A DNA stretch of 63,244 nt, counting the filler. It is 14 parts of 14 records of this genome, joined end to end, with 100 filler letters (N's around TTAATTAATTAA, not from the genome) between each part and the next. Parts side by side here need not be neighbours in the genome. Positions count along the whole stretch, not along the records: positions 21,672 to 25,822 come from SRR15195285_890; 13 more parts are not named here. One strand, 5' to 3'. Each line of letters opens with the position of its first letter. The first letter of the stretch is position 1. Made by a program: the position numbers and the translations under genes. The notes beneath the pieces were generated by a model. The model was given only the letters and a program-made list of their open reading frames with translations, was not told the DNA's origin and searched no databases. Below, one piece after another: positions 4,982 to 42,371 of the stretch.

Positions 4982-5105
4982 ACCTTTCCGTATGGTCATA
5001 ATTACTTAGTAACTACTAGTATATTAGTAAAAGTCCGGTGTCGCGCGGCGACCGCCCATTCGACGTCCCGCCCATCGCGAGCAGGGGACGCTCCCACGGC
5101 AGCCG

Positions 5106-7547: not shown

Positions 7548-7849
7548 ACATCACTGGTGCAAGGGCAGCCGGACCGATTCACTCTTCTTCGTGTCGACAC
7601 CGACATACTGCAACAGAAGATTTTGATATTTTGACACTAAATTAATGCTACATTACTGTTCGTCTTCTTCTACTTCATCAGTAATTTTCTCGAGAACCAT
7701 TGCGTGCCGCCGCTGCATGATTCCGTTTTCGGGTCTTGAGCGATTGTCGACTGCTCCCAATGTATCTCACGTCAACATTAAGGCCGGACTACCACACATT
7801 GAGCCTAAGAATTTCTTGGTGAGTGGTAAGCTTTCGTAGATTGCCCCTA

Positions 7850-7929
7850 GGACACTTGAGGAAAGGGCGCTAGGACACTTGTTTGGGTGGCAACGGACAC
7901 TTTAACGGCCGACCCCGAGACGGACACTT
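7850..7929 (+). repeat. Four iterated GGACACTT motifs
   Basis: Copies at 7850, 7873, 7895 and 7922 (spacing 23/22/27). The first two extend to CTAGGACACTTG and the last two to ACGGACACTTTAACGGCC. Confidence 0.9.
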
Positions 7930-7967
7930 TAACGGCCCGATACCCGAGCGATTACGGCAGGTATGGT

Positions 7968-8405
7968 ATGACACACAACCTCGACAAATTACCACCACAC
8001 ACCGAGAGACACTTGTATCACACGCGTCTCGAAAAGGTCATCGGGCTACACTTGGAGGAGCGGGATGAGCTACACAAGCAGATTGAGAATTTAGAAGAAG
8101 GAAAGGGTTACATGCTCGAGTCGGAGCACTTGCGCGAGATCAAGGAGTTGAAGGAGAAGCACAAGCAAGAACTAGAGGACGAGACTTACCGGGTAGAGAA
8201 GAAGAAGGAGATGGAGAGGGTGGAGTTGGAAAGCAAGGTAGGTGATTTAGAACATCAAATCAAGATGTTGTTGTGGGACATGAAGTGTAGTGGAGTGAAA
8301 CCATCCAAAGCGATGAATGAATTACCACCCGACACAAATGAAACCAATGAATCGTGTGAACCCTCAACGGAACAAGAAGACCTCGATGAGATTTACAAGC
8401 AGTAA
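7968..8405 (+). CDS. Small E/K-rich coiled-coil protein, possibly of mobile or viral origin
   Basis: Intronless 145-aa ORF from ATG 7968. Its purine/A-rich codons differ from the GC-rich host genes. Confidence 0.55.
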   Translation: MTHNLDKLPPHTERHLYHTRLEKVIGLHLEERDELHKQIENLEEGKGYMLESEHLREIKELKEKHKQELEDETYRVEKKKEMERVELESKVGDLEHQIKMLLWDMKCSGVKPSKAMNELPPDTNETNESCEPSTEQEDLDEIYKQ

Positions 8406-8420
8406 CTAGAGGTTTACACT

Positions 8421-8457
8421 CAGACACAAATAGATACAAATAGACATAAATAGAAAT
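8421..8457 (+). repeat. Degenerate 10-bp tandem repeat running into the contig end
   Basis: CAGACACAAA TAGATACAAA TAGACATAAA TAGAAAT. Confidence 0.8.
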
Positions 8458-8984
8458 NNNNNNNNNNNNNNNNNNNNNNNNNNNNNNNNNNNNNNNNNNN
8501 NTTAATTAATTAANNNNNNNNNNNNNNNNNNNNNNNNNNNNNNNNNNNNNNNNNNNNGCTTCTGGGTGTAGCCTGCAGTTTCCGCAATTGGTCGACGGGT
8601 CGCGCGGAGCTGATGCTACAAAGCGAAACCAGTCAGAATCCCAGTACTACTGATTCTGCGATACAGACTTGTGATACTAGTATGGAGCGTTACCTGGGTT
8701 TAGGTAGGTACTAGTAGTATGTGGTACAGCCGTTAATGCATGCGGCGCCGCGGTGACGTGTCAGCAATAATTTTGAATCACGACGAACACAACGCTGCCT
8801 CCTGGCGCAGTGGTGCGCACATGTGACGTGGTCCCTGGCGAGGGACGTGCGACCAGCGCCACGTGGCATCGGACGGCATCGAAGAAACTGAAGAGCGCGG
8901 GCGGAGGCTTGGATGATCAAGAGGGACACAGTCTGATTAACTAGGTGTCACCGCACAACATACTTCAAGACGCTACGCCACCGC

Positions 8985-11888
8985 TCACATTTCCACAGCT
9001 GCAGTGCATACAACCGTGACCGATTTCCCAATGAGACTCTGCTGCGTTGGCAGCGCCAGCTCCACAGTCGTCAAGGGCGTAGTACTAGTGATATTCGTCA
9101 TCGTCGAAGAGACGACGCTATTCCCTGCCGCCCTTGCGTCCGCGCTACAACGCAAAGCTACTCCTTCAAGCGTAATGGTGAGTGGTCCACCAGTATCCAC
9201 ACCCGATGCGGTGAGAGTCACGCCAGTTGCATTTGCACGTCTCAATAAGATGATCGATGGTAGCGATGCGCGCACTATCGCACTACTCGCTCCCAGAATG
9301 CACTCGTCAACCTGGGCCGTGGCGCTCGGAGCCCCACCGCCCGAGGGCCAGAATACAACGTGCAGTTGCGAGGCCGAGCTGTAAGTGGAAGGACCGCCAC
9401 AGACTGAAGCCACTTGCATACTCGCTGTGTTCACGTGGTACATGTATGGACTACCTTGAGCGTGCGGCTTCGTCGCCATGTCTTCGACAAACGCTGATGG
9501 GTACATGGTATACATGTACTCAGATGATCCCTTGGCACTCGCAGAACTTTTTTTCGGCGCCTCACCGTGCAAGATGCGGACTGAAAATGTGTCGAGAGTA
9601 CGGCTTAGCGCTGCAGTTGCTGTGGCGTGAGCCGTGAGATGTGCGAAATTGCCAGTGCGGTTTGTGACGTTGACTTCAAGGGGTTGCGAATTGTTTGTCA
9701 ACAGGATACCTGTGCCATTGTGCCAAAGCCAGGATGGGCACGGCACGGTTGGCCCCGTGCAGAAGGTGTGATTGCCCTGCACACGATGACAGCAATCGCG
9801 CGTTGCAACTCAGTACGGCACTTACTAGTGGCTACATTCCTAGCCGTTTGAAAACGTATCAGTGCAAAGTGATGAGCCATAATGCGACACAACGCAGAGG
9901 GTAACACAAAACAAATCGTAGCGTACTGGTGCTAGGATAGTCCGGCCAGTCGCCTTCCCAATAGCGCTGCCGTCGTCAATCCAAACCAATCCACTTAAGC
10001 GCTCATTTACAATCGTTGTGGCCACATGCATCGGCTTTCCAATGGCCTGCAGTCCTGTCCCTAGCACCACTAAGGCATCGTCGAACGCAAAGTGCGAGCG
10101 TGCGAGCGAAAATCCAGTGTTACGGAGCAGTCCTGTTGGACCAAACTGCATTGCTGTTGCGCCGTACTTGCCATCGCTTGCACCTCCCACGAAGGTGGCT
10201 CCACCCATGAGCAGAGGCCAGTTGTATCCAATGGACTCGGATTGCTTCGGGTCGCAATACAAAAATGATGTGTCTGTTGGTGCTGTGATACCAGGGAGTG
10301 CATGCCAATCCCAAACCGCAGGCATGTCCAGATAGCGCGCTGCAGCAGCATCAGTTGGGTACAGTTGTATTGAGCCGTCTGCCACGTGCTGCGCGCCAAG
10401 GCACGCTCCATTGATGCAACGTGCGGCCACCGTGCGTTTGGAGCGCATGCGTACAACCAAGACAAAGCCACGTCGTCTGTGGACCATGATATCGCTATTC
10501 CAGTAATGCCTGTTCCCCAGCACTCCGGCAATAGCGTTGGCACTGCTACCAGTTTCGATAATCTTGGCGTAGGTAGCCATCTCAGCGCGTCGCACTGGTA
10601 GTGAACGCAGTGCCTCTCCAGAAAACCCCACTCGATGCCGTCCTGGCGCGGAAATTGATCGCCCAATCGCAGCCAAAGCCCAGTCTCCACTGGCCGTTGT
10701 CATCCATTGCTGACCATCAAGTACCTGTCGCACGTGCAGGTTTCAAGTACCGGTATGGTTGTGCTCCGGACTGTGTGATCAATCAAAACGCAACAATCAG
10801 AAAAACTAGTCCCATTCTTTTTCACTGACAAAGCTTGCGAATATGGTCAGCTTGTCAGTAGAAATAGCAAGCGATGTATTTGCGGTCAGGTGGTAGACCT
10901 GCAGCATTCGGTTTGTAAAGACAGCGCCGTAACTTCCCGTCAGCTCTTCTGCACCTGGACAGGAATTAACGAGCGTATCAGCGGCACGCCGCACATTGTA
11001 TCGGGCAGTGTCTTACGGAATTATGCCATTGTCGGTTAACTGCACGCACCGTGTTGATGGAACGAACTGTCGGCCTGTATACCCTCTGCTGGCTGTGGGG
11101 CTATGGCGAGAACGCTGTACAGCCGATTAAGAGCAGAGGTGATCGTGTCACTGGCGCCAGTGATTAAGCCAAGCTGCAGCGTGATTGTTGCCATATCTGC
11201 ACTGTTGGCACCACCACAGCTCCCATCGCAACTGCTCATCTCAGATTTTGCAATCTCGGTCACTGCGCTGTTAACATCATCGGCAGCAAGTCCCTGTATA
11301 CGTGGATGACGACAGAGGGAGCCAACACAGATGTGTGAAACTGTGAATCGCGAAGATGCAAATCTCAGAAGCAGGCGGATCGGGCTGCCGTACACGTCCT
11401 TCCAGAAGCAAAAAAATGTTTGCCAGTGATTGTGGCACGCCAATCTCCATCCAGTACCAGTTGGGATTCGTGAAGTGTCCACGCAACCAATACCTCAGTG
11501 CGACGTTTGCTGAGGCCAGCAGCGAGCTGGAGTTGGCGCTGGGGCTCAGTGGCGATCGCACAGCCACAGCTATTGACTGAATGCGATGCAGGTGGTTGAT
11601 CGTAGCCCACGTCCCACGCGTCTGATCTTTGTAGTTCACGTCTGCCCACGACCCGTCGGCTCGCAGTGAGGACTGCAGCTCTGCCGCGGTCTTGTTGGCA
11701 GCGGCAGCCTTGCTGGCAGTAGGGGAGAGGAGTGGTGCCAGCAGCCGACTCTTGACGGTCTGCTGGTCAGCTGTGCACGACGGGAACGGCGATGGTGGAA
11801 GTGGCGGCGCGGCTGCAGCAGCAAGCGCCAGGGCAGGTGGGAGCATCAGGAACAGCTGCTGCAGCCGTGGGCGGACCATCACGCCCAT
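8985..11888 (-). CDS. Secreted polysaccharide lyase family 8 (chondroitin AC/hyaluronate/xanthan lyase-like), 5 exons, ~817 aa
   Basis: Exons 11888-11394, 11293-11050, 10954-10830, 10724-9927 and 9776-8985, all GT-AG and phase-consistent. Signal peptide. DGSWADVNY, NPNWYWMEIGVP, GGAN, EGIQADSSFHQHG..GSYG, GNRHYWNSD, WDWHALPGIT, FVGGASDG. Confidence 0.92.
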
Positions 11889-12631
11889 CGATCGCGCACC
11901 CAACCAGCGCAGGGTGGATGGCCCGCAAATGCCGATGATACGATATACAGTACTAGTATATATGCACTCCTGACACCTTTGCATGTGATTAGGAATATGT
12001 GCGCCTAAATGCAGGAATTCTGCATTCAGCTCATGCATAAATNNNNNNNNNNNNNNNNNNNNNNNNNNNNNNNNNNNNNNNNNNNNTTAATTAATTAANN
12101 NNNNNNNNNNNNNNNNNNNNNNNNNNNNNNNNNNNNNNNNNNCAACCTGGGTACTGCGGCTTAGGCGGGACGACACATCGGGACCTGATGAGTGGCACAG
12201 CACGTGCGCGTGCGCATGCGTGGCCCGCGCGCGCGGTGGTCTATCTGTGCGCCGCGCGTGACAGCGCGAGACAGGAGAGAGATAGAGAGAGACAACGAAA
12301 GTGAGCTGAACAGTGGCAATTTGCGGGTCGGCGAGTGGCTCTCTCTGCTATCCGCGTATGCGTATGCTGGCGAGAGCACTCTACCGGCGGGGTCACACGT
12401 CATCTGACGCACGACGACCTCGCTCCAGCAAGATGATTCTCTCTACATGCAGCGCCACCACCACCGCTGCTGCTGCGTATGCCGCATCTAACACCACCAC
12501 CACCACTGGAGCCTGCAGTACCCACTCTGTTCAATGCTTTCTCTCAATCCTGGCAGTCATTTTGCCAGCGTAGTCGTGCACGGCGCTCGTCTGAGTGTGA
12601 TGGTGACTCGGCCGTGCTTTGGTCGGAGCAG

Positions 12632-15351: not shown

Positions 15352-15966
15352 CTACGTATTTTGTGAGGTTGCTGTCCACACAGTCGCCGCAAATGGCACA
15401 TAGGTATATAAACAGTCTGCCACATCTCAGCCAGTCTGTTGCGGCATGGTAGCTGCTCGCACGCNNNNNNNNNNNNNNNNNNNNNNNNNNNNNNNNNNNN
15501 NNNNNNNNTTAATTAATTAANNNNNNNNNNNNNNNNNNNNNNNNNNNNNNNNNNNNNNNNNNNNTTCCCTGATCTATTTTCCCTGATCTATTTTGCCATC
15601 CATCCGGATCCGTGACCATTTTGTGTTCCGAACCGGTTGGTTCTCCTCAGAGGTGAAATTTCTGACAGGCTACCCGACATGTACACGTTGAATATTGCAT
15701 TATTAATACAGGACACCGTGCTAGCGACAGAATTGGAGAAATAGGACGGCCAGAGTCGTCTGACTGACTCGGTCCCAAATTCAACAAAACTCATGCTAAT
15801 TCGAGCAATCCAGACAGCAATCACTATTAGTATTCCCTGAATTTCATGGATTAGGATTCGTCGTGAACTACGAGTTTATACGCGTGCTCCAGAATCGGTT
15901 CTGGCTCGCTGTTGGCGGCCTGGCCGTGGGCGGGCACCGTGGGCTGAGAGCGGCTGCTCGGTCGTG

Positions 15967-21202: not shown

Positions 21203-21779
21203 GTTCGCGCTCTCTAGTGCACAGGAGGCTGCGAGCTGTAGGTCTGCTGCGCCGTCTGTCTGTGCGTGTGTGCGGCGTTGGCCTTGCTGGAAGCGCCGTG
21301 GCCCTGGTGACAAGCTGACCCGTGACCATATGAAACTTGGTAGAAATCGGATTGCAAATTCGTACTAATTGGATTTTACAATACTGTATTTAGATAGGGA
21401 TAAATGCGGATGTTTGCAGGGCTGGGTGAAACCATTTCGGAGCGTCGTTGCCTGCAGGCATGTGAGCCGCACGATCCTGCCCACGGCACCTGCTGCAGGA
21501 TCGAGGATCGGCAATCACGGCTCTTCATCTGAGATAGATCTACTGTGTGTTTCCCATCAGGTTCTGAGACTNNNNNNNNNNNNNNNNNNNNNNNNNNNNN
21601 NNNNNNNNNNNNNNNTTAATTAATTAANNNNNNNNNNNNNNNNNNNNNNNNNNNNNNNNNNNNNNNNNNNNTACTGATCATGCATGAATGGATAACTCCG
21701 CGCCGCTTTTCCCGCGGCTGCACCCCTTCGCGCTCTCGCACCTCGCTCAGGCTCATACGCCGTTCGCCATACGGAGGGC

Positions 21780-22930
21780 ATGCCGGGAGCACGCGTGGGC
21801 GTGTGCACGCTGGTGCAGGTGCAGGTGCTTGTTGTCGCCGCTGCTAGCAGTGCCGGCGACTCAGCTGCTGCTTCCTCCCGAATCCGGCACGCGACAACGC
21901 CCAACACCTTCTCGGATTTTGATGTAGGAGGATGTGGCCGTGGAGTGTTGCCAGCGTCGCATCCGAGAGTTCCTTGTGCTGTGGTGCCAAGCTGTGCGAG
22001 CGGCCATGCTGCCAGGATCAGCCCGTATGCGATGTCGAACGGAAGCGGGCCTGCGTTCCAGCTCACCGTGGCGCAGGTCTGCCACACGCCGACAGGGTTC
22101 CATATTGAATGTGCGCTCCACTCGTGACCGCTCGTGGCAGCGCCAGCCTCCTTTCTCTCTACTGCCACCTCCAGCAGTGACACATCGGAGCAGCGTCAAC
22201 AAATCGCGTGCACCCCCATATCTCGCGAACACAGATACGGCGACTGACAACAATGTGTTCAGCCGGTACTACAATTGCCACGATACTGTTTGGATGGACG
22301 ATGCCCTAGAGTTTATGGTGTATCCCCACGCGACGTCCGCCGACCCAGTGAGTTTCAAATGCGGTTGCTCTGGTTGCTAAGCGCAGTTCCACGGGTGTAA
22401 TGAGCTGTGCCGTGTCCACGCCTCACAAACGGTCTTGATCTGAACCGCAGGCCGGCAATTATACTGAGATCGACCTCTCGCCTAACAATGCCTTGTGGGC
22501 CGGCCATATTCACAACCCCACAGGGACATACCCGGTCGTCAACTCCAGCAACCCAGCACTGAATACGGTGAATATCTCATGCACAACCTCCGGCATAAAG
22601 AGCTCTACGAAGATTACCCCAACTGGATGGGCAGCCACACTGTTCGTCCCGTTTGGGCTCGTCGGCCATCCAGTCTACACGCGTGAACAGATCAGACGAG
22701 ATGCCCCGCCGCCTGCAATATGGCGCGCGAACGTGCGTCAGTCAGTATTTTAACAGTATTCGTACCGACATCTGGACCTGAGTTTACAAGTGCTGCGTGG
22801 ATGCCAGTTTTACCGCACTGATACGAGGAAAGGCACAACTGATCAGGAATTCACTGCTTGGTCGCCAACTCTAGTGCAGCCGCCTGCTTTTCATGTTCCA
22901 GAGTACTTCGGAATTCTAGAGTTGCGCTAG
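21780..22930 (+). CDS. Secreted CBM9-like (DOMON-fold) carbohydrate-binding protein, 4 exons, 282 aa
   Basis: join(21780..22110,22235..22347,22451..22732,22808..22930). VWMDDALEFMV, YTEIDLSPNN, WRANFYR and AWSPT..PAFHVPEYFG match the CBM9-like family pattern. Confidence 0.85.
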
Positions 22931-23090: not shown

Positions 23091-25233
23091 TCAGCGCGCT
23101 TTGCCTGCAGTCTGTGCGTTGCGGATTACTGAGACGACGAACGGAATTGCAAAGGCCAATACATATCCCGCGGCCGCCAAGGTTGGCTCGTTCGAGATCA
23201 GCACAGCCAGCGGAACCGGCAGGTAGGCGGACGAGCCTACCCCACCCTGCACCATGCCGAGCAAAGCACCGGCGAGGGCTGCACCGACGTAAGCTGCTGC
23301 GTTGACGACCTATTCCAATATAGTCCACAGAATAAGATACAGCTACCAGTCAGACGCGACAAGACGGAGCATTGTCGATGGAGCTCGGGCGCACCGGGTC
23401 GCGCTCCATGAAGGGATAGGCAGCTTCTATGTAGTCGCCGAACCACACGTTCACGCGGAGGCCTTGCTTGGCAGCAGAGACCTCAGAAGCGCCATCACGC
23501 GGTGAAACAGTCGAGGCAGCGCAGATCCCAGCAGAAACCATGCACAGTGTGGCACAGTCTATCGCTCCTGTCATGCCGAGCGCTTCTCAGGTGCAGTACA
23601 TTAATGTGACCCTAGCATGGCCTGACAGGATGCAATGAGCGGGAGAGTTTACCGAGAAAAGGCGGATCGCCAGATTCCATCTCGAGCAATATCAGGGGCA
23701 AGAAGATGAGGTGATACCATCCGATCTTGGACCCATACACAAACACCTGGCATCACCACAGCACAATCATAGTCTAGGATTAGGTGGCACGACCTCGCAT
23801 CGTCATGGAAGCGCGAAGCTCATTTTGTTTGCGTACCACTGCTGTGATGCTGCCAAAAATGGCCCCCGACAATGGAGTTGATGTTAAGTGCACGATGCTT
23901 AGCCGCAGTACCGCGGTCGGGCCGTCAATTGTTGCCGATATGGATGCGGAACCAATTGCGCTCACAAGCAGACCCGCGCAAGATCCGCTGCCTGCAGCGG
24001 CGGCTATGGTTGCACCTGTTGCAGGGAAGCCGAGTTTGAAGGCCGTTGCAAGGCACCGCTGATACGGGAATCCCACCACCAACGATGCATTCGAAAGTTG
24101 CCACGCAACGGACCCGAGTGAGACACGGCTCTGACGTTACATGTACGTCATCAAATGCGAATGTGCACTGGTTATTGCTAGAGCAGCCAGATTATGGACA
24201 CACCGGACATAGCCATCCCACAAGTACACCAGCCGCGAGACCGCCCACAACAGATCCTCCGGCAGCATTTGCCACGGATGGCCAGCCGACGAGAACGCCA
24301 GCGAGTGCCCCGCTGATCAGACCGATCTCACCCAAGTGCGAAATTTGATGTGCGCCGACAACACATACTACACGACGAGTACAGACAAGCAGCCCGGCCA
24401 GAACCCATCAGAGGAAATCTGACACTGGAAACGGGCAAAGCTCGACAGAGAGGCGCTAAGAGCTTACCGACTACAGCAAGGACTGCGTTGGCTGGAGGAA
24501 GCAACGGAAGCAATTCGGCGAGCTTCGGTGGCAGGATCTTGAACACCGTGCGTAAGACAACCATCGCCAGGAAGGCCGGCAGACATCCGTCGAGTAGTGA
24601 GTGAAGATCGATACCGCTGTCACTTAGCTTTGGTGAATACGAAAGCCGCCAGTGCGCAGCGAGGGCAGAAGTGAAGGCAATTGCCCTGGACTCGCGGGTC
24701 GTAGCCACCGACCCACCGCCCTGGACGACATTGCAGGAGAGCTCGAGCGCCTTACCAGTTCCAGTCCCGCCGGTGCAGACAACAGGCAGCCCAAGCTTCG
24801 CTGCGGCGACCATCGTGTGGCGGTGCACGTCATCCACGTCGCCTGATATCATCACCACGCCGTCTGGCATCTTGCCTCTTGTCAGCGCCACATCCGCGGC
24901 TCTGGCGGCGTCGTTGACGTCTTGCAGGCGGCCTTCGGCAGTTTTGACGAGGCGGCGCGCGCCAGCGACGTCAGGACTGGTGAGCCGCCACAGGGCTGCT
25001 TGGCTGTCATCCATTGCAGTATCCATAGGCGAGTCACAACTCGTGAACACCACGGCGGTGACTTCGATCGACGCGTGCTCGAGCTGTGCAATGAGCAGCG
25101 TGAGGTTGGCGTGGGCATTTGCGGCGCCCAGCGCCTGTGCATTGGCAGCTCCGCCGCCCGTGGACCCGACGATTGCAACGGTACGACGACGCGGCTGTGC
25201 TGCGGGCGACGGGCTGTTGGAGCGCCCCCCCAT
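23091..25233 (-). CDS. PTS-EIIC-like multi-pass membrane protein with N-terminal Rossmann-like domain, 6 exons, 545 aa
   Basis: Exons 25233-24468, 24367-24204, 24058-23837, 23746-23653, 23567-23395 and 23309-23091 in phase. N-terminal VAIVGSTGGG. Membrane motifs GFPATGATI, GWYHLIFLPLILLEME..FLGAID..LCMVSAGI, FGDYIEAAYPFM and SSAYLP. Confidence 0.8.
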
Positions 25234-25363: not shown

Positions 25364-25822
25364 TTAACCGCGGACACGGACTCCAGCCGTGCTCATTCCC
25401 TGCACACGGTGCCATCATGTATTCGAGTATTAGTCAATGCATTGTGTCTCATCACCGCCTACCATACGATAGGGTCCACACCTGCCAGTTTGTTTTGAAT
25501 TGAGAGTCGACGTAGCTGGAGCCCTCAGTCGCCTTGGCGATTGCAAACCCCACCCCAGCACGCTTGACAGCGGCCCAATTGATCGTGCCTTGGTAGTGTG
25601 AGACGTCCGGGCCTATGCAGCCGTGGCACCAACAGACCAAGCGAGTATCGTTCAGAGTTGGCTGATCAATGCGCGACGGACCTCCCTGCTCGCCGACACC
25701 GAGCTAGCGAGCGGCAGTGTGTTGCAGTGCACGTTGAAACATCGGCGCGCACCAAACGGCCCGCCCGAACCAGGCTGCGGTGTGGAGCCGTGGCAACACT
25801 GCACATTCGCAGCGCCCGGGCA
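25364..25822 (-). pseudogene. GH25 lysozyme (muramidase) fragment with N-terminal CPG..CC module and premature stop
   Basis: Exons 25822-25753, 25612-25482 and 25399-25364 give CPGAANVQCC..GPDVSHYQGTINWAAVKRAGVGFAIAKATEGSSYVDSQFKTNWQGMSTAGVRVRG*. It stops before the usual AYHF strand and DxE motif. Confidence 0.7.
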
Positions 25823-26403
25823 NNNNNNNNNNNNNNNNNNNNNNNNNNNNNNNNNNNNNNNNNNNNTTAATTAATTAANNNNNNNNNNNNNNNNNNNNNN
25901 NNNNNNNNNNNNNNNNNNNNNNACAGACAACTACTTTTTACCTTCCCTCATTATTATAGTGTCGGCCCGCTTACGGACAGCGACCAATTTCAGTAGAATT
26001 CCCGAAAACCACGAAATGATTTATGTTCCGGCGCTTGAAAATGATGTCCCGGTGAAATCTCCGCTGACGAGTCAAAATGGACTTCTTGCCCCGCATCCCG
26101 TCACCAGCCGGAGTGAGGCCTCCCGTTCTGTCAAAAACGAAAATGGACAATGATCTGAACATATTGCCTTATGCCACTTAATTATCTATAACTACTATAA
26201 TCGTACCCCGGGCGGGTACTGAACAGTACCAGTGTACACTGTGTTGTGTGTACACGCCATATGAGAAAATTGACAATCACGACTTCACGAGTCCTCGCCC
26301 CGGCTGGTGGGCCGGCGGGCGCCTCCTGAGCTGATTACGCATCATCCGCAACGCAACGCAACGCACAGCAGCTACCATTGACAGCTACCGCCCTTGCCTT
26401 ACG

Positions 26404-27791: not shown

Positions 27792-29510
27792 CTAGTCGAC
27801 ACCCCGTGAGGGGTCCTTCGAATTGCTGTGAACGGCGTGCAGACACCCAACAACTCCGCATGTACACACAGCCGCAAAGCGCAATCCTACAGCACCTGCG
27901 GAGGAGTCGCATTCTGTTGAACCGACCCCCCCTGCAATGAGGGCTGCACTCGCGATAAGCACCGCAACGACACCACGGCGCCATGTGGATGGCAGCGACA
28001 ACAGGGGCAGACGAGATCGGTTGCCCCCGGATTCCTTGATTTCTGTACCCGTGTCCTGCTCTCTGTACTGATGCTGGTGCCGAAACTGGCGCTCGTAGTA
28101 GCTTTGAAGCCAGCGATCGCGCGACAGGATGGAGGTGCGCAGCGGGAACCGCTGCACTGGCGGCCCCAACTCCACTGGCGGGGATGAGCAAGACATAAAT
28201 GGGGCCACAGCCGGAATGTCTCGTCCGTTTGCTGTTGATGCTGACTCGACTGTCGGCTCTGCTACGTCCATGTCTCTATCTGTCGCTGCCGTAGCATGCT
28301 CTTGCGTCGTAGCCTGTGCAAGATAGATCCCATTCGAATCCTCAACAGTTGAGGACTCGCAGACCGTTGTCCTGAACGAGTCTCCAGACTCACTGCTACT
28401 GCTGCTGCCAACGAATGTCTTCACCAACGAACTGCTACATCTATGCTCTCCATGAACAGTCATGCTGGCTGCAACTTCCTGGTCCAACTGTTTCGACGGC
28501 ATCCGATCCACTGTGGTCACTGCTTTGAACGCCGTTCTAGTCTGCCGTCGGTCATGGGCGCACATCGGCAGTGCGGGATGAGATGAGTGAGCATTAGTGG
28601 GGTGAGCATGGGACACCCACTGGTCGCGTTGTGCGGGCCGTGTTGCGCGGGGAGACGCCGACCGCCTCTTGTTCGCACTGCTCCGCGTGGGACTCCGTAT
28701 CCGTCTCAATGCAGTCTGAGAATTGTCACCACCCACCTTCTTGCCCCGATTCGCGTGTGGTGGTGTCCTTGGCCTAGGAATATCGTGCGGTATTCGGCTG
28801 ACGACTTCCATAAGACGCCGGAACTCCGTTCTGTTGACGCACCGCACACCATTCGTTGCATCACTGCTGTCACGATTCCTGCGAAACTTGCTGATGGCGT
28901 TGAAGCGCTCCCTGACTTGCTGTGTAAACCAGTCGTACTTGCTGTCAAGCTGTTGAAAACCACCCTTATGGAGCCGCTCCACGGCTACCTGAACTTGCGC
29001 CAGCGAGAGTAATCCGGTCCCGGCGGTGTCAAGCTCGGAGAACAATTTGTCCTCGCAAGCGAAGTGCAGTGGCTCCACGTGCCAGCAATGCCCTACAGGG
29101 CGCGCTCTGTACGAAGAGCCGCGGCGTGGAGAAGGACTGTGGCGACCTGAAGCAGTGCGACAGCACTGCCCTGGCGAGCGCGCCTTTGCCTCACGGTACG
29201 CCCATGGGTCGAGCACTGTCTCCCAGGCCGGGTCGATCCTCGATGGTCGCTGCTCGTGGAACAGTGGCGCTCGATCAGGTGCATCGCCTGTATATACTGA
29301 GCCTGCTGCCCGCCCCGCGTGTGCCTGCGGTGACGATCTGCCACGTCTCGGAGATCGCACGCGCGGTGAATGCAGGTACGCACTTGGAGCTCCCATCGTA
29401 CGGTCGGCCAGTGCGGTTGTCGCAGCGGCATGCCGGACAGGAGCCGACGGCACACTGTCACTGTTGGCAGACTTCGACGGGCCAGTGAGGCGCTTGTGAA
29501 CCGTTGCCAT
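27792..29510 (-). CDS. Uncharacterised 572-aa protein with EF-hand-like pair and C-terminal hydrophobic segment
   Basis: ATG-initiated long ORF. LFSELDTAGTGLLSLAQV and VNRTEFRRLM. Hydrophobic GVVAVLIASAALIAGG near the C-terminus. Confidence 0.6.
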   Translation of the reverse strand: MATVHKRLTGPSKSANSDSVPSAPVRHAAATTALADRTMGAPSAYLHSPRVRSPRRGRSSPQAHAGRAAGSVYTGDAPDRAPLFHEQRPSRIDPAWETVLDPWAYREAKARSPGQCCRTASGRHSPSPRRGSSYRARPVGHCWHVEPLHFACEDKLFSELDTAGTGLLSLAQVQVAVERLHKGGFQQLDSKYDWFTQQVRERFNAISKFRRNRDSSDATNGVRCVNRTEFRRLMEVVSRIPHDIPRPRTPPHANRGKKVGGDNSQTALRRIRSPTRSSANKRRSASPRATRPAQRDQWVSHAHPTNAHSSHPALPMCAHDRRQTRTAFKAVTTVDRMPSKQLDQEVAASMTVHGEHRCSSSLVKTFVGSSSSSESGDSFRTTVCESSTVEDSNGIYLAQATTQEHATAATDRDMDVAEPTVESASTANGRDIPAVAPFMSCSSPPVELGPPVQRFPLRTSILSRDRWLQSYYERQFRHQHQYREQDTGTEIKESGGNRSRLPLLSLPSTWRRGVVAVLIASAALIAGGVGSTECDSSAGAVGLRFAAVCTCGVVGCLHAVHSNSKDPSRGVD

Positions 29511-30098
29511 TATCGTCCCGACGCTTCTCTGAAGGTAGCTTTCAGCATACTCTACGAATGCTATGAATGGTGGCCAGCCAATCTATCATTCAGCGTTTCC
29601 ACGCGGCGGTGGTGGAGCATCGGAGCGACGCGCTGCACGCTCCTCCCTTCCCCAACCCTTCCGCTTGCCCCGAAGGCTTGCTGCCTGCCTCGTGCCGCGC
29701 TCCTCTCTTGGGGTACTTAGAGAGGCTGCGTGCGTGCCTCAGCCCGGCACTACAGCTGCATAACTGCGCATGTACCAGGTACGCCACGCAGCTGAGGTAC
29801 GCGTATATCCTAGATACGTACCTGCGCGGCGCGCGCGCGCGGTTGACCGCCGCCTCCGGTGGGACTTGTTCTATTGTCTATCATGATTGTTAATGAGTTG
29901 ACTGTGTTTGCANNNNNNNNNNNNNNNNNNNNNNNNNNNNNNNNNNNNNNNNNNNNTTAATTAATTAANNNNNNNNNNNNNNNNNNNNNNNNNNNNNNNN
30001 NNNNNNNNNNNNCGCATAGGATACGGAACGGTGTACTAACCATGTGCTGTGTGTTGTGTGCTGTGCCGATCGACACCATTCGCTTCGTCAACTTGCAG

Positions 30099-30211: not shown

Positions 30212-30649
30212 CTGTTGCACCACGCAATCCAGCCCATGTGCAGCACGAGCGCGACGAGCTCCAACGAACCCGGCGGCCCACCATGGCCGCCGCCACGGCG
30301 CACCGGCGCGCGGCGCACCGGCGCGTGCGCGTGCATGCCTGGTCGCCACGCGCGCGCGCGCCCGATGGACCGTTGATGACGAGACCGGCACGGTTGAAGT
30401 TGGTAGAAGTCCAGTCATGCAGCACTCACAGTCATCGGCCGAAAATCGGTGAGTTGGGAGCGGGAATCCGCCGGCGCCGGAGGCATGGGGAGCCTAAGAA
30501 TCGTCCCTACGTAGCCCGCCCATATGCCGACGCGCGGTCGATAGCTCACTGCACGCACACGCAGCTCGCAGCGACCAGCGTCTCCGTCTGCAGCGCCAGG
30601 AAATTGTGCCTCGCGTGCCAGGGCCAATACCGTCACGCTGCGACAACAT

Positions 30650-33323
30650 ATGGTCGCACGCTTCCACACCTCAGCGCACAGCCGGGTCCGACGGCTTTCG
30701 GCCCCACGTGCCGTGCTTGCTGTCGCTTGCTTGGCCGGCGCGGCTATGAATGCTTGTACCTGTATGGGAGCCCCTGCAGCGGTGGTGCTGTCTGTGCAGG
30801 CCTCGGTAGGCGTGGACGGCGGCGACATGGCCACAGTCAAGAGTCGCATGCTGTCAGACCTGCTGCCATCGCAGGCGAGTGAAGCCGCGGCCATCAAAGC
30901 AGCACAGACGCTGGCAGCTGAACTCCAGCCGAACGGCACGTGGCCGGATATTGACTATCACGAGTTCCGTCGCGCTGGTTGGCCGATGGTGGAGCATCTG
31001 ACTAGAGTGAGCCAGCTAGCGGCTGCGTGGCGTGGAGGTACCAATGCTAGCAGCGACTCCGAACTGCTGTCTCTGCTGGCAAGCACGAGGCTCGCTCTAG
31101 ACCTGTGGCTGAAGAACGACTGGAAAAATCCGAACTGGTACGACAATGAGATCGGCGTGCCACGGCAGATGGGAGACATTGGGCTGCTGCTTCAGCCAGC
31201 TCTGTCTTCGGAGGAGAGCAACAAGATGGAAGAAATCATGAGTCGGGCAGACTGGAAAGGCTCTGGGACGGATGCGAATCCGAAGTGGACTGGCGCTAAT
31301 TTGCTCGATATGTTGCGCATTCAAATTCACCGCGGACTGTTTGTCAACTCTACTAGCCTGGTAAAGCAGGGCTTCGCGCGTTCGTTTGCAGCAGTGGTCC
31401 ACAAGCACCAGGACGAGGACAGCATTATGGTCGACAATTCGTTTCATCAACACGGCCCGCAGCTGCTGGCAGCGGCATACGGCGCCGTTTTCACATCTGA
31501 CATCCTCGATCTGGCGTGTCTCTCAGCTAGCACAGAATTTCAAATGCCAGCTCCTGCGATTGCCGTTTTCGAAGGTCTCGTGCTTGATGGCCAGGCACGG
31601 ATGTCGCGTGCAGGGACCTGGGACTGGCAGGTGCACGGCCGAGGCATCTCTATCGCATCTGGACTAGAGATAGGATTTAGTGCAGATCGGATGCGCATTT
31701 TTGCCGACCATGTTTCGCCTCGCCGAGGCAATGAGTGGCGGTCTTTCGCTCACCGAATTGATGCAGACGATGCGAGCACTTCAGCAGCAGTAATTGGCAA
31801 CCGTGGCTTCTGGTCCAGCGACTACATGACCCACGGCCAACGCGAATTTCTGTTCACCATTCACATGTTCTCCGCTAGAACAATTCCAGCAGCCTGCGTA
31901 AACGAACAAGGCAAGCACCGTAGTACTCTCAAGCTCCGTCACGCTCCCCCTGACTGACATCCTGCTTGTGCGCACAGGCAAGCTTGACCGACACCTTAGC
32001 GACGGCGGCACCGCGCTGTATAAGACTGGCCACGAGTACGATGGAGTGTTTCCTTGCTGGAACTGGACTCGGCCTCCCGGTACTACCGTTGCGACGGCGG
32101 CGGCTCAGCCTAGCTGCGGCAACGCCAAGCATCATACTACTGCTACGTTTGTGGGCTCCGCATCGGATGGAACACATGGCGTTGCTGTTCAGCAGCTCTT
32201 AGGGCACACAACTGTCGACTCCATCTCGTCCGCGATCGACCGTGGTTTCAACTGCTCAGAGTCAGGAGGTGTCCTAGGCAGCGGCATCTGTTGCATGAAA
32301 TCGTGCGGGCAGTGTTCTGGCAACGGATGCAGCAGCCGCAAAGGTGGTGCTAGAGACTGCTGCAGCAGCGAGATTCATCGTCGCTGCAGTAGCACCGTCG
32401 GTGCCCCCTGCCGTATCGATGGTCAGTCCCCAGGACCAGCCCCGACGCCACACACCGAACCTGACGCGAATGCAAACAAGACATGGCTGCTGTTCGCCAA
32501 TGCGATTATCGCCGCCGGGCGCGCTGAAGTGCCAAAGCTTGGTGGATTGGTGACTTCAGTGGAGCAGACGGTCCTGCAGGGCACAGTATATGTAGGAGAT
32601 GCAGGGTCAATGTCAGTACTCCCCGATGGATCGCTGCATCATGTGGACCTGTCGAAGGGCGGGGCCTGGGTGATGCACGATGGAGTCGGCTACCTATTGC
32701 CACAAACGGCAGGGGCTGTGATGCACGTTAGCAACACCAACAAAACTGGGACTTGGAGCTCGATTGGCGTTGGCAGCGACACGCCTGTAACGAGGGCAGT
32801 GTTCGATCTCTACATCACACACGACGACGAGTACCATTACATGATCTTTCCAAGCAACAACACGGTGGCAACAATGCCAGCAGTACTATCAGCTTCTGGC
32901 GGCTACACTACGGCAGGTGGAGGAGATTCCGGCTTCCGTGCAGGACTCGACCCAAGTGGCAACGTCTTGCTCGGCGCAGTTTGGGCGGATGCAGGTGCCG
33001 CAGTCAATATCGGATGCTGGAGCGTCACTGCGTCACGTGCATCTGTGTTCATACTGCACAAGCTACCAAATAACTCAACGCTTGAGGCGAGCGCAAGTGT
33101 CCCTGGTGCTGACGCGGGAAACCTCATCCTAGTCATCGATGATTCGGGCTGTGAACCAGTCGAGCAAGGCCGTCACACACATCTGCTTGGCCCGCGGCGC
33201 AGTCTTGTTGGGAAGTCGCCTGGGTGCAAGGTAGGTGCAGCAGGTGCGTTGGAGCTCGAGTTTGCACTACCTACAGGAGATTTTAGGGGAAGTAGTGTGT
33301 CCATTGCGTGTACAGTCGTTTGA
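30650..33323 (+). CDS. Second polysaccharide lyase family 8 (2 exons, ~868 aa) with Cys-rich insertion
   Basis: NGTWPDIDY, NPNWYDNEIGVP, TGAN, DNSFHQHG..AYG, GNRGFWSSDY, HLSDG, WNWTRPPGTT, FVGSASDG and WVMHDGVGY. Intron 31911-31977 (GC-AG). Confidence 0.92.
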
Positions 33324-37754: not shown

Positions 37755-40700
37755 TGCATCAGCTATGCCGTCGCCATCGCTGTCTCCCAGGTCGAAGTGA
37801 GTATCGAGATAGTTCGGCGTGCCGTCGCCGTCTGCGTCGGGATAACACGCCGCTGTGCTATCGGGTTCGCATTGCGCCCAATAGCTCGTTCCAGTATCAT
37901 ACAGTCCATTGTAACCCCGAGACACATGATGGTACGGATTGTGTTGTGGATCCCACGATCGAGAGCCTGGAAAGTCGTGTCGCTGCGCCCACAAACCGCC
38001 TTCGAAACGGATTCTGTCGCGGTTCAGCAGGTCCGTATCCACCTCTGCGTTCGGCTGTACGAAGCTGACCCACGTCTGGTTTTCCTCGTATGCATTTTCG
38101 AGGGGCGTCCCCCAGGAGTAGTACCCATCGCCATCCAGGCCAGTACCACGCTCGATTGTCCTGTCACACTTGCGGAACCCACACCCCGATAAACAGTTGG
38201 GGCGGCACCCCGTGGTGTCACGGTGTGCACTGCGTGGGGCAGCTTCGGTGTGTCCTACCGGCAGGTGCGTGGAGCCAGCCTCGCAGCATGCTACGGGTGG
38301 CAGCGGCGCGACCGGGCGCCCTGAGCTATCAAATGACGACAGGTTCAAGCAGCAGATGCCAGGTCCGGAGCCGTCTGCAGTCACACAGCCCGACGGCGCT
38401 CGACCGTAAACACGATACTGAGCCGCTGAGTCACCACCGCATGTGCGATGATATGAAGAGGTCGACCCTGCATCATACGCCTTACTGTCCCCAGAATTGC
38501 AGCCAAAGGGTCTCGAGTGCCGTTTCTCTCCCACTTTGAAGACACCTTGCACCTCACGGAGCTGTGGAAACGACAACGAATCCAAGCCGTTGCTACTCCG
38601 TACGTCCAGATCCCCGCCCACGAACAACAGTTCTGGGAACTTGATGGCTTGTTCGGTGTGTCCAACCTTTACGGTCAACGTACCCTGTACGCGCGACAGA
38701 CTCGGCAGGGCAAGCTGGTTCCCAGTCGAAATGAACAAATCTCCGGCCGCGCGCTGCAATCGAGGCAGGTGCACCAGCACTCCACCAAAGTAAGAGCTCA
38801 CATTTGAACGGACTTCCTCCAGTGATGGCAACCATACACTGGCACCGGAGAACACCGCTCGACCTCCAATGCGTCTGAGCGAGGGAAAGTTCAGATGGGT
38901 GGTATCCCGGGGCAGTATCGGGTACACATGGTCATCTGATTGCCAACTACTTCCAAATGCCTTGGAATTACGAACAACTCTGTAACCGTTAGGCGAGTTC
39001 GAATCCCTGATGTACACTTCGCCCTCAACGGTCTGGAGAGAAGGAAAGTTTATCCAGCTCCAGTCACGAGCTCCGAAGTATTCGTAATCCTCATTTTTCA
39101 CCATGAGCCCGACAGGGGCAAAGCCGATCGTTGGGGCACCTGCAGCTACTGGATCAATCGGGCGTCTATTGGGCTGTATGCCGCTGCCACTGTCGGTTTC
39201 GTAGCAGTACGAGTACGCGGACGTCCCGTATTGTTGTTCAAGATACTGGCACCAGCCGCGGTTTGACGTGCGATGACATCCAAAATGGCCGCAGACGTCG
39301 ACGTGATTCCAGTAGACACCAATGGACGTCAACCTCGAAAAGTCTACCGCATGCAAGTCCGTATTCCTTCCCGACTTGTCGAACAGATGACTACTCGGTC
39401 CCCTCTGCCAAGCATGCATTCTGGGAGGGACGCTTTGCTGGTTCATCTGCAAAGCGCGATTAAATCTGATAGTTTCGAACAGCATACCGCCGCCCATGTG
39501 GGTCAGCGTGGGAAAGGAGATGGTTTGAAGGTCCTTCACTTCGTTGAAATGTATGGAGTGGTCGGTCCAGTGCAGGGCAGGGAACAAGATCTCAGTCGTG
39601 CTCCTCAAATCAAGGAGCAGCACGCTCCCCACGCCGTTGTACTCAGTCTCGTTCTCGGTCGCGCAGATAAAGATCGCGCTGTCGCAGCCAAAGTCTGGTA
39701 GCGCATAGGTTGTCGTCCTGTCTTCGATGTTGTCACCCCATGGAGACTGGACCACGGCCTGGGTAACTGCCTGCGGCGAGGCGCTGCGCGGCCAAGTGCC
39801 ACGGCCACCTAGCGTCCGCAATGCCGGGAACTCGACGCGGTAGTTTGGACAGGATGTGTGCAAATATCCATCATCGGGATGATTCTGCGGATAGCCGGGA
39901 TAGTCCTTTCGATACATCGCGACCTCTCGCGCGGACGGACACCAGCTATTCCTATTGTATCTTCTCGCGAGGTAATTCGAGTCTTCTCGGGAGGTAATTC
40001 GTCGCAGGTACGCCATGTCCTCCAAAGTGCGCTGTTCGAAGCTCAGCACGATCTGGAACTCCACGTGCGCCAGACGCGGGAAAGACATTCTGGGTACCAA
40101 GATCTGGTTGGAAAACTCATCTTGCCAGATTGGGTACCGCTCTTCCTCCGTACCCATGTAGAGCGAACCATGTGGTCCGACCCACAGCGAGTCCGCTGAC
40201 ACCAGTGCCGGAAAGTTGGGGATCGTCTCCGTTCGCCCTGGAACACTTGACTCGACGCGCAGCCGCCCACCCACCACTTCGAGGCTGGGCAGCGTCATGG
40301 TCGGCTCCGGGTCCCAGCCGTCCACGAAGTCGGCAAAGTCTATGAACCAGGCATTGCCGCTGACCGTGCGCAGGGCTGGGAACAGCGCGTCGGCACTGCC
40401 ATGGCTGACATCGATCACCTTTAGATCGCCCTCGACGCGGACCAAGGATGCAAAGGGCGATGTGTTCGGCTGCGATGGGTGGTTGGTGAACGGTCGGTAG
40501 ATCATGTCCTCAAGGTTGCATTCGGGGCACTGGCGGGATAATTGCTCCGCATACGACCTAACGGCCCCAAGGTGACTGATGTCGGGGGTCGCTCGTAGCA
40601 TTGCCGCGGAACGGCACGACTGGTGTGTTTTAGCGCCGTCGACATTGTTAGTATAAACATTCCAGTCGAATCCAGGAACGTCGTCCACAACATCGTCAGG

Positions 40701-42371
40701 AATATGGTCGACTAGATGTGCAAAGCCATGCACGTAGTTTGGTGGGCACCACGACCATGCGGGATTATCGATAGACCACGAGCGGAGGGCACGATCCTGG
40801 GGATTGCGAAACGCATCCTGGGTGCGCTTGCAGCTCTCGTAGTCATGCGGGCGTTGATCTCTACCGCCCGCATCCAAACTGCGCGCACCAGACGTGTCGA
40901 TTCCGTCACGGGACCAGCACTGCGATAAGAGAGCGTAGTGCGGCTGGTGACCGTACTCGTTCGCAGCACCCTCGTAAAGCGGTGTTGTATAGCCTTCGTC
41001 AACGTCGCCGTCTTTTTCGCAGCGCTGATACGGCCGCCCACTTGGATCAAGCAGTACTTCGCCGGTGTTGCGGTCTGTAATGTTGCCGCACGCCAGTGCT
41101 CCATCTGCTGGCCCCCCCAGTCGCAGCTCGCCGCGGACCTCTCTCAGCAACGGTGCATGCACACTCTCGAGGCCACCGACGACAAGAACGAGCCCACCTG
41201 CCGTCTCTAGCGCCGGAAGCCACAAGGTCCTGTTATTCCACGAGGCGGGATTGTCTCCAAAATCCTGTCTCGTGCGTCCGAACCATAGCGTGCCCCCTAC
41301 GTGTTCCAGAGCCGGCAAGCGGAAGCCGGCGTCGGAGACAGCGCCACCAGAAGTGGGCAGAAAGATGCTTCTAACGGCATCATTAATGACGACGGGTGAG
41401 TAGTTATCGTCCGGGCACGCGTATCCCGCTAGCGGGAACGCGCACGAGCGTGGGCCGAACAACGCGTGACCGCCGACTGTGGTGAGGTTCGCGAGCACAG
41501 TCGACGAATCGAGATCGAAGTGGTGTGGGTCGAAGTTGCCGCCCACGCTCCGCAGGGCAGGGAAGTCGAGCTGCACTTCCGAGCGATCCGTCTCGCCTTG
41601 GGCGAAGTGCCCAGACACCTGGCCGGGGCCCTTGGAGATCTCGAAGTCCCCGCCGACCGTCTCCAGCCGAGGGAAGCTCAGGCTCCACGCCCTCTTTTCC
41701 CACTCACTGAAAGTACATTCATCTTCACGCATATCCGTCACACCCCTCGTCCAACTAGAACAGTGATTCTCCGCTTCATGTCGCCATCGTACTGCCCGCT
41801 CTTCGCCGTCCAGCCAGTGGCAAGGTTGGCCACCAGCGAGCCTGCAGTCGTTCGTTTCCGTGTAAGCGTCGGCTGCGTTGGGGTAGAATACTCCTAGCGA
41901 GGGGTTCGCTGGCGGAGTGCCGTGGGCATCGCGACACTGAGCATGCAGCCGCGCAACGTAGTTGTGCAAACGGAAGTGACCTGTGACGCTGCGCAGGGAC
42001 TCCACCGCCTCTCCCAAGCACCCTCCAGAGATCCAGAGCGTCTCGTCACTCGGGCGGTATGCTCGAGACCCACAGAAATCCCACACTCGTTGACCCTGTG
42101 TCCAGTCGGCGGCTGGGAACCACTCGTCGACCGGGAACGGGGTGAACGTATCGGAGTCGGTCCATTGTCCGAGGCGCCGGGTGCATGTGGACCAGTTGCC
42201 CACGACGTCGCCGTCTACGCTCACGCAGCCGTATTCCACCAGCTGGGTCGGACCGCAGGTGCCGGCACACGCCTTGGTCGCCTCGTCCGTGAGGCGGCAG
42301 GGCTCCGTGGTGTGCACCGCTGTCGCAAACGCTACCACAAGGACGACGCACGACAGCGAGCCCGGCGGCAT
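37755..42371 (-). CDS. Very large secreted/surface protein with receptor-L-domain-like repeats and thrombospondin type-3-like Ca-binding motifs, 3' partial
   Basis: Signal peptide from ATG 42371 (MPPGSLSCVVLVVAFATA). Many (F/L)PxLxxVxG repeats. DADGDGTPNYLD..DSDGDGIADA at the contig end. Confidence 0.85.

Follow-up and report, generated by a model that had tools for sequence, protein, structure and literature searches.

A six-exon protist gene for a putative EIIC-fold carrier with a Rossmann-like N-terminal domain

Introduction

The fold of the EIIC membrane domains of the phosphotransferase system (PTS) and their elevator mechanism of transport are already known. To our knowledge, PTS permeases are generally regarded as limited to bacteria and some archaea, and eukaryotes are thought to be without PTS-type transporters. 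In the mannitol-family EIIC protein MtlA, residues H195 and E257 are ones that we take to be functionally important. The Glu of the GITEP motif of EIICs is described as present in nearly all of them and as indispensable to both transport and phosphorylation, and conserved EIIC features have been proposed as targets of antibacterial inhibitors (PMC12900739). In this study, we analyzed a stretch of DNA of 63,244 nucleotides, filler included (the window), and describe one gene in it, located on the minus strand between positions 25233 and 23091. It is a nuclear gene of a marine protist, bears spliceosomal introns, and belongs to a family of two-domain Rossmannoid-EIIC proteins for which neither Pfam nor NCBIfam has a model. 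We consider it somewhat probable that the product is a homodimeric, elevator-type carrier of the EIIC fold (glucose-fructose-lactose type) fused to a cytoplasmic N-terminal flavodoxin/Rossmann-like domain and operating independently of the PTS phosphorelay. No account of eukaryotic EIIC homologues or of the two-domain family was found by full-text search of the openly accessible literature, at the level of titles and abstract openings.

Gene structure and eukaryotic origin

The gene has six exons, starts with the ATG at 25233, and ends with the TGA at 23091. Its exon borders were set by six collinear tblastn segments (E-value groups of 6.8e-108 and 7.2e-71) obtained with P0001, a 576-residue protein that was the sole match of a word-based search with the exon 1 translation, restricted to longer proteins (67% identity; E = 7.6e-92). 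The coding sequence of P0001 is uninterrupted and lies on 1.9-kb contigs. After splicing, the window gene gives an open coding sequence of 1,638 nt and a 545-residue protein, which aligns collinearly with P0001 at 64% identity over 556 columns.

Exon 1 (24468 to 25233; 766 nt, ending in phase 1) carries the start codon, the N-terminal domain (residues ~14 to 200), and the first membrane helix and matches P0001 residues 4 to 269 at 66% identity. Membrane helices of the scaffold and dimer region follow in exon 2 (24204 to 24367; 164 nt; 65% identity to P0001 residues 269 to 330), and the helix GFPATGATIAA and a variable loop follow in exon 3 (23837 to 24058; 222 nt). Exon 4 (23653 to 23746; 94 nt) encodes GWYH..LPLILLEME at 23675 to 23722, exon 5 (23395 to 23567; 173 nt; 76% identity) encodes GDYIEAAYPFM at 23407 to 23439, and exon 6 (23091 to 23309; 219 nt including the TGA; 61% identity to P0001 residues 502 to 571) encodes the last membrane helices and a conserved S.AYLP.P. 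The four motifs quoted in an earlier note, which had been made from the letters of the window alone, were all located, AIVGSTGGG and VVCTGGTG in exon 1, GWYH..LPLILLEME in exon 4, and IEAAYPFM in exon 5.

All five introns have GT..AG borders: intron 1 at 24368 to 24467 (100 nt; GTAAGC..GTGTAG), intron 2 at 24059 to 24203 (145 nt; GTGTGT..TATCAG), intron 3 at 23747 to 23836 (90 nt; GTACGC..TGCCAG), intron 4 at 23568 to 23652 (85 nt; GTAAAC..TGACAG), and intron 5 at 23310 to 23394 (85 nt; GTGCGC..GAATAG). All but one shift the frame, and reading through from the upstream exon meets an in-frame stop in four of the five, within 4 to 19 codons in introns 2 to 5 (at codon 4 in intron 2 and at codon 19 in the 90-nt intron 3, the one that stays in frame). 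Intron 1 has no such stop but shifts the frame, so that every intron breaks the reading frame. The guanine-plus-cytosine fraction is 0.609 in the coding sequence versus 0.521 in the introns.

Two related contigs from one metagenome scan, L086 and L087, share 86 to 87% protein identity with the window gene over exon 1. Exons 1 to 3 are kept in them at 72 to 86% nucleotide identity (77 to 83% for exon 1 alone) with 0 or 6 gap columns, whereas introns 1 and 2 fall to 38 to 62% identity and differ in length (intron 2 in L086, 43%). The 5' flank is only 27 to 44% identical, which, set against the well-kept exon 1, agrees with translation starting at the ATG at 25233. L087 retains the intron 1 donor (GTAAG) and acceptor (TAG). 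In L086, there is no AG at the aligned intron 1 acceptor (~2640 to 2660, aligned to window positions 24368 to 24372), where the acceptor may be shifted or noncanonical or the alignment or assembly may be at fault. In contigs from other samples, exon 3 has two indels that keep the frame (12 nt at 23931 and 6 nt at 23937), and the sole frame-breaking indel among these contigs, of 1 nt, falls within intron 4, at 23645. The borders, the collinear match to P0001, and the contrast between exons and introns in the relatives bear out the proposal in the earlier note of a nuclear gene with five canonical introns. Since spliceosomal-type introns are absent from bacteria, the contig is eukaryotic whichever bin it is assigned to.

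Nineteen public runs contain the stretch or part of it, six of them RNA libraries; three RNA runs and one DNA run were examined. The contigs of the three RNA runs (X10, X15, and X17) are unspliced, spanning introns 1, 2, and 5 completely and entering introns 3 and 4, and no spliced joint occurs in them, at a depth of 3 to 7 that cannot show absence. These contigs may derive from DNA carry-over or pre-mRNA, contigs drop rare forms, and the gene parts without RNA cover are uninformative. The exon joins, whose lack of transcript support the earlier note had named as a refuting condition, gain no such support from these runs, in which only the unspliced form was found, at a depth too shallow to exclude splicing. 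Together with the missing acceptor AG in L086 and the shortness of the contig (only 4.15 kb), the unspliced contigs would suit a gene that does not work in a eukaryote, being either a decaying, unspliced pseudogene or part of a contig misbinned with a eukaryote. We regard this as very improbable, given that cutting out the five GT..AG segments and nothing else brings back a match to P0001 without gaps, that the exons are far better kept than the introns and their indels are multiples of three, that bacteria lack such introns in any bin, and that the RNA contigs are so shallow and open to the explanations just given.

Membrane domain

An AlphaFold model of P0001 was built with nine homologues (predicted local distance difference test [pLDDT], 82; predicted template modeling score [pTM], 0.77). 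Its C-terminal ~340 residues match the E. coli PtsG IIC chain 8qsr_A with a Z score of 19.4 and a root mean square deviation (rmsd) of 4.5 Å, with 333 of 383 residues aligned. Three other EIICs follow, namely, V. cholerae IICGlc (9lgt_A; Z = 18.2), B. cereus MalT (6bvg_A; Z = 18.0), and ChbC (3qnq_D; Z = 15.8); the top non-EIIC row reached a Z score of 9.7, and the Foldseek list for the same model is headed by EIIC chains. The comparison with ChbC and MalT, suggested in the earlier note as a check on its EIIC-like membrane part, returned the EIIC fold, and weak profile links of the bacterial family members point the same way. Three of five tested bacterial members match TIGR01995 (E = 2.4e-15, 9.8e-14, and 3.4e-16; 51 to 59 bits versus a cutoff of 614.7), and three of five match PF02378 (top E = 6.7e-6; 25.8 bits versus a cutoff of 30.7); none of these matches lies above the curated cutoff of PF02378 or of an NCBIfam EIIC model. 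In E. coli K-12, a profile of 105 family sequences found only mtlA and cmtA, weakly (E = 0.037 and 0.057, marginal values for one genome). In MtlA, the IIB and IIA domains lie at the C terminus; the extra domain of the family is N-terminal and unrelated to them.

The likeness to the glucose-family EIICs (8qsr, 9lgt, 6bvg, and 3qnq) comprises the fold over ~330 residues, a symmetric dimer formed through N-terminal helices (predicted for P0001), and, in the C-terminal half, a conserved His and a conserved Glu of a loop that reads G-x-x-(I/V)-E-x-x-(Y/F)-P-F. In contrast, sequence identity to them is only 7 to 15%, the family falls below the Pfam and NCBIfam cutoffs or has no match, its motif reads G-D-Y-I-E rather than G-I-T-E-P, it has neither an EIIB or EIIA domain nor a phosphorylatable Cys, and it is found in eukaryotes. 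Across the 105 sequences, the G, Y, H, L, P, and one E of the exon 4 motif are at least 90% conserved, as are the N, G, E, Y, and P of the exon 5 motif. The His of GWYH aligns with MtlA H195 and with PtsG H212 (H211/H212), and the Glu of DYIEAAYPF aligns with E257 in the GIHE motif of MtlA, in line with the earlier recognition of GxH and (I/T)E..(Y/F)PF, here GxH and (I/V)E..YPF, as EIIC motifs.

A homodimer was predicted for P0001 residues 215 to 576, with an ipSAE of 0.56 versus 0.00 for the top control and the interface in helices 233 to 307; at least 73% of the contacts were common to the runs, and the partner pLDDT was at least 76. Among solved one-chain pairs, 21 of 30 reached the threshold applied, and among single chains, 0 of 23 did; for eukaryotes, the count was 17 of 29, but only 1 of 7 for proteins without an older solved relative. 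Since EIIC dimers have already been solved, the score may reflect likeness to them rather than proof of a dimer.

N-terminal domain

Residues 1 to 200 of the window protein were modeled with AlphaFold2 on a 105-row alignment at high confidence (pLDDT, 94.2; pTM, 0.89). The model has a strand, a helix, a strand, a beta-hairpin, three helix-strand units, and a final helix and predicts a flavodoxin/Rossmann-like domain; with the structural search, it confirms the Rossmann-like alpha/beta domain of ~200 residues that had been read from the letters. Against 48,161 chains (VIA-align), it matched flavodoxin domains (Z = 9.9), lobes of sugar-binding proteins (Z = 9.5), MarK (Z = 8.4), MilB (Z = 8.3), and TIR (Z = 8.1). 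With a top Z score of 9.9 and 48 chains at a Z score of at least 8, no relative stands out, and because this list is flat, we gave the domain no family name. Foldseek returned no match at an E value of ≤0.001. An assignment to NYN was rejected, as the closest named Atlas clusters, which are NYN, scored 0.82, below the lead level of 0.9.

Three glycine-rich loops are conserved across the 105 bacterial and eukaryotic sequences. Loop 1, GSTGGG (residues 23 to 28; 25150 to 25167), follows strand 1 and is kept at G23 (96%), S24 (97%), S/T25 (99%), G26 (100%), and G27 (98%). Loop 2, CTGGTG (residues 153 to 158; 24760 to 24777), has the family consensus GTGGTS and is kept at G153 (97%), G155 (100%), G156 (99%), and S158 (90%). 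Loop 3, GGGSVATT (residues 172 to 179; 24697 to 24720), is kept at G174 (100%), T/S178 (98%), and T/S179 (92%) and is followed by R/K183 (99%). The full conserved set (G23-S24-S/T25-G26-G27, D71, N107, S130, G153-T/S-G155-G156-T/S-S158, G174, T/S178, T/S179, and R/K183) points to a single pocket whose composition suits an anion- or phosphate-binding site.

Among described domains, PTS_IIB of the Chb/Gat/Mtl type is likewise a small cytoplasmic alpha/beta domain beside an EIIC with a Gly/Ser/Thr-rich loop after strand 1, and we presume that the family loop resembles the C-x-x-G-x-x-T-S loop of EIIB. However, at the position of the EIIB phospho-Cys, the G-S-S/T-G-G loop of the family has a Ser (97%), and the domain has twice the length and includes a beta-hairpin insert. 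Conserved Cys and His residues are absent from the 105 sequences, which excludes a classical phospho-Cys EIIB, and a PTS_IIB-type identity was rejected; E. coli IIB and IIA domains compared by BLAST with 163 N-terminal domains gave nothing below an E value of 0.19. The N-terminal subdomain of the UPF0261 protein MarK/Tm-1 (9mpy) is also Rossmann-like (Z = 8.4; rmsd, 3.9 Å; 142 residues aligned; 16% identity), but it ranks 32nd in the flat list, is indistinguishable there from dozens of flavodoxin-like matches, and has no profile link or Pfam match to the family. MarK is described as an ATP-dependent small-molecule kinase whose N-subdomain holds a putative ATP site (PMC12624787).

Distribution and phylogeny

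A profile of ten full-length members recovered 676 representatives (50% identity clusters) at an E value of ≤1e-3 and 253 at ≤1e-30. A check of 444 candidate stretches from species-representative prokaryote genomes left 373 confirmed; of 80 loci kept, all contain the gene, and 78 have both domains whole. Bacterial open reading frames (ORFs) match the profile at E values of 1e-150 to 1e-180 over positions ~4 to 522, and the gene is carried, among others, by Anaerolineaceae, many Bacillota, Enterobacteriaceae and Yersinia, spirochaetes, and one Segatella. Three Atlas clusters lie nearest to the family: one is dominated by eukaryotes, chiefly Bacillariophyta, and the other two are bacterial and bear the name “PTS sugar transporter.” These names and the end-to-end bacterial homologues agree with the match to a bacterial family so annotated that the earlier note had proposed. 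The family is marked by the motifs GSSGG, GTGGTS, GGSVATT, PAT, G.YH..LP...E, GD..E..YPF, and AY.P, and the window protein matches it over both domains from end to end.

Bacterial two-domain proteins of 515 to 540 residues, such as those of Yersinia frederiksenii, Metabacillus (L015), Longilinea, and Brachyspira, share this end-to-end architecture and all the conserved motifs and are 30 to 36% identical to P0001 over residues ~28 to 564. They differ in that their genes are intronless and in their place in the trees, which were computed with FastTree for 163 rows and with IQ-TREE for 68 rows drawn from these (partial matches and bacterial ORFs shorter than 500 residues were left out). All labeled bacterial rows (77 in the FastTree and 28 in the IQ-TREE analysis) lie on one side of a branch with a support of 99 (Shimodaira-Hasegawa-like approximate likelihood ratio test, 99). 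The other side, with 63 of the 163 rows, holds the window protein, P0001, P0006 from Symbiodinium sp. CCMP2456, P0079 from Phaeothamnion confervicola, and 59 unlabeled rows, which are not proven to be eukaryotic and several of which are full-length ORFs on 10- to 20-kb contigs. The separate clade that holds the window gene is apparently eukaryotic. The tree is unrooted and the two groups are reciprocal sides of one branch, and hence neither a direction nor a donor of transfer can be stated.

Gene neighborhoods in bacteria

Within four genes of the transporter gene in the 80 bacterial loci, we collected 568 ORFs. Directly downstream on the same strand in 34 of the 80 loci is a gene for a 279-residue protein (e.g., L013:9645-10481 in Yersinia frederiksenii, L004:9582-10418, L010:6369-7205 in Brachyspira, and 31 other loci), a further difference from the window, where it was not found. 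It is a phosphate-binding TIM barrel with weak similarity to HxlA, NanE, HisA, ThiE, and class II aldolases, all below cutoffs. With 65 to 80% identity across Yersinia, Bacillota, and Brachyspira and only generic names such as “histidine biosynthesis protein,” it is, by its sequence conservation, a strongly constrained and uncharacterized enzyme. Other recurring neighbors are a GntR/UTRA regulator (14 loci), a Cof-type HAD phosphatase (9 loci), and a DeoR regulator (6 loci); in 14 Chloroflexota loci, a gene for a protein of ~360 residues (359 residues) without a Pfam match lies divergently upstream (e.g., L002:1938-3017 and L004:6707-7891, both on the minus strand).

These neighborhoods bear on whether the family consists of ordinary PTS permeases, in which the EIIC would be coupled through EIIB and EIIA encoded elsewhere, the N-terminal domain would have a regulatory or docking role, and the eukaryotic copies would be recent transfers working poorly or differently. 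The EIIC catalytic-site residues are conserved, bacterial members bear the name “PTS sugar transporter,” and enzyme I (EI) and HPr are present in four of five bacterial carrier genomes tested, so that bacterial members may yet depend on the relay. On the other hand, only 1 of the 568 neighboring ORFs resembles an E. coli IIB or IIA domain, and no IIA or IIB occurs among the 14 commonest neighbor clusters of the 80 loci. The 4.4-Mb isolate genome of Longilinea arvoryzae (G002; locus L026), which carries both the transporter and its TIM-barrel neighbor, gave no match to PF00381 (HPr) or PF05524 (N-terminal domain of EI). The eukaryotic-type clade is also deep and diverse, with its 63 rows behind a branch of support 99, and does not look like a recent transfer. 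We find this explanation improbable.

The same neighbors, several of which act on or sense sugar phosphates (the TIM barrel with its HxlA/NanE/HisA-like phosphate-binding end, the Cof-type HAD phosphatase, and the DeoR and GntR/UTRA regulators), would also accord with a single-polypeptide group translocator, in which the N-terminal domain would be a new phosphoryl-donor module, using ATP or another donor, that phosphorylates the sugar held by the EIIC domain and replaces EI, HPr, EIIA, and EIIB. No kinase gene recurs nearby in the bacterial loci, the His and Glu that position the hydroxyl for phosphorylation in EIICs are retained, the three glycine-rich loops with their Ser/Thr residues are conserved together with Asp71, Asn107, and Arg/Lys183, and the MarK N-subdomain has the longest aligned stretch among the top structural rows. 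Yet its Z score of 8.4 is within the noise of the 48 chains at 8 or above, Pfam shows no match to UPF0261 or a kinase of any sort, conservation is limited to a single acidic and a single basic residue, with no Walker-type Lys, and the feature-based look-alikes are the NYN clusters, at 0.82 only. On balance, such a translocator seems unlikely to us, though less so than an ordinary permease. Its fullest form, the chief rival to an uncoupled carrier, holds that the N-terminal domain, as a hitherto unnoticed phosphoryl-transfer or kinase module, supplies the phosphoryl group and that algae and protists throughout a broad eukaryotic clade inherited and retained the protein, which would reveal sugar uptake by PTS-type chemistry in eukaryotes for the first time; this, too, we would call rather improbable.

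A sensor or transceptor, whose EIIC domain would bind external sugar without net transport while the N-terminal domain relays the signal, would explain the fusion to a cytoplasmic domain that looks ligand binding and lacks a catalytic signature, and in one case, the Brachyspira locus, a chemoreceptor gene (7385 to 9217) is a neighbor. There is no recognizable output domain, however, the bacterial neighbors are metabolic (TIM barrel and phosphatase) rather than signaling genes, and every feature of the transport-domain fold is retained. We give this possibility little credence.

Proposed function

In the reading that we favor, that of a carrier uncoupled from the relay, a sugar or sugar derivative would bind in the C-terminal transport domain between the His of GWYH and the Glu of YIE..YPF, and the transport domain would then move against the dimer-forming N-terminal scaffold helices, carrying the substrate across without any need for an EI/HPr/EIIA relay. 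The N-terminal domain, with a pocket formed by the three Gly/Ser/Thr loops and one Asp, one Asn, and one Arg/Lys, would take the place of EIIB at the cytoplasmic mouth, bind a phosphate-bearing ligand, and either gate the carrier or hand on the substrate. We infer this ligand and role from the conserved pocket. That the substrate is a sugar is suggested by the EIIC fold and by the sugar-phosphate genes near the bacterial homologues. Relay independence is suggested by the eukaryotic host, the one bacterial genome without EI and HPr, and the absence of linked PTS genes; the N-terminal domain without a conserved Cys or His and the single IIA/IIB-like ORF among 568 were counted for it as well. The phosphorylation-independent carrier or sensor of the earlier note is plausible.

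Several observations weigh against this reading. EI and HPr occur in four of the five carrier genomes, the structural list for the N-terminal domain has no standout relative, and none of the RNA-library contigs shows splicing. For the protein as a whole, the structural evidence was obtained with P0001, an orthologue with 64% identity, and not with the window protein. Neither the six exon translations nor P0001 matched any Pfam or NCBIfam family, even at an E value of ≤10, only 1 of 14 close homologues touched PF02378 (E = 0.0011), and the family profile found nothing significant among PDB sequences (top E = 1.1). An hhalign comparison of the family with PtsG gave a probability of 0.8%, from a single-sequence template too weak for this test. 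Because direct sequence profiles miss the eukaryotic protein, its EIIC homology is supported by the fold and by the stepwise link via the bacterial members.

Contig context and other features of the window

The window consists of ~14 short contigs joined end to end, and the gene lies on a 4.15-kb contig at 21672 to 25822. The 13 junctions, each made of 44 N, TTAATTAATTAA (stops in all frames), and another 44 N, lie at 4882 to 4981, 8458 to 8557, 12043 to 12142, 15465 to 15564, 21572 to 21671, 25823 to 25922, and seven more places; because the window is an artificial concatenate, adjacency across them has no biological meaning. The strand that carries the transporter gene also holds, upstream of it, the N-terminal fragment of a GH25 muramidase gene (25455 to 25703; PF01183; E = 3.3e-13; profile positions 2 to 43), truncated by the contig end at 25822. 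At 21928 to 22750 are convergent ORFs that had been called CBM9-like, for which no Pfam match was found at an E value of ≤0.1. Thus, of the neighbors named in the earlier note, the GH25 fragment on the same 4.15-kb piece stands and the CBM9 label does not. The further suggestion of a small glycan-use cluster fails, since the window concatenates short contigs, only GH25 was confirmed, the three are separate transcription units, and everything beyond the 4.15-kb piece belongs to other contigs. Homologues of the TIM-barrel and HAD neighbors of the bacterial genes were not found in the window by tblastn at an E value of ≤1, the window being a small sample of the bin.

Plainly eukaryotic domains are encoded on other contigs of the window (M14 cytosolic carboxypeptidase, WW, PX with oxysterol-binding, EGF, F5/8-C, fn3, Kelch, and C2). 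Two contigs carry PL8 lyase domains, at 9843 to 10742 on the minus strand and at 30545 to 33320 on the plus strand (Lyase_8, E = 4.7e-39 and 2e-40; Lyase_8_N, E = 6.9e-30). PL8 is unusual in a protist and hints at degradation of glycosaminoglycan or xanthan-type polymers or at genes of bacterial origin. Long open frames without a Pfam match at an E value of ≤1e-6 lie at 37755 to 42620 (minus strand; 1,622 residues), 5031 to 7544 (plus strand; 838 residues), and 27795 to 29582 (minus strand; 596 residues), and these and other long single-exon ORFs suggest an intron-poor eukaryote.

Implications

A deep clade of the EIIC fold includes an intron-bearing gene of a marine protist, members from Symbiodinium and Phaeothamnion, and a diatom-rich cluster. 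If this clade does prove eukaryotic, the EIIC fold functions in cells that have no phosphorelay, and the family would offer a natural uncoupled EIIC for the study of elevator transport; it would also bear on the idea that EIICs originated as stand-alone carriers. Should the phosphoryl-donor alternative be true instead, a single polypeptide would both import and phosphorylate the sugar, with no need for EI, HPr, EIIA, or EIIB. In bacteria, where the family appears in 373 confirmed stretches, the transporter and its highly conserved TIM-barrel partner may form an uncharacterized sugar utilization module in gut and soil species. The clade, if eukaryotic, would also flag a nutrient uptake route that is unannotated in abundant marine microbes.

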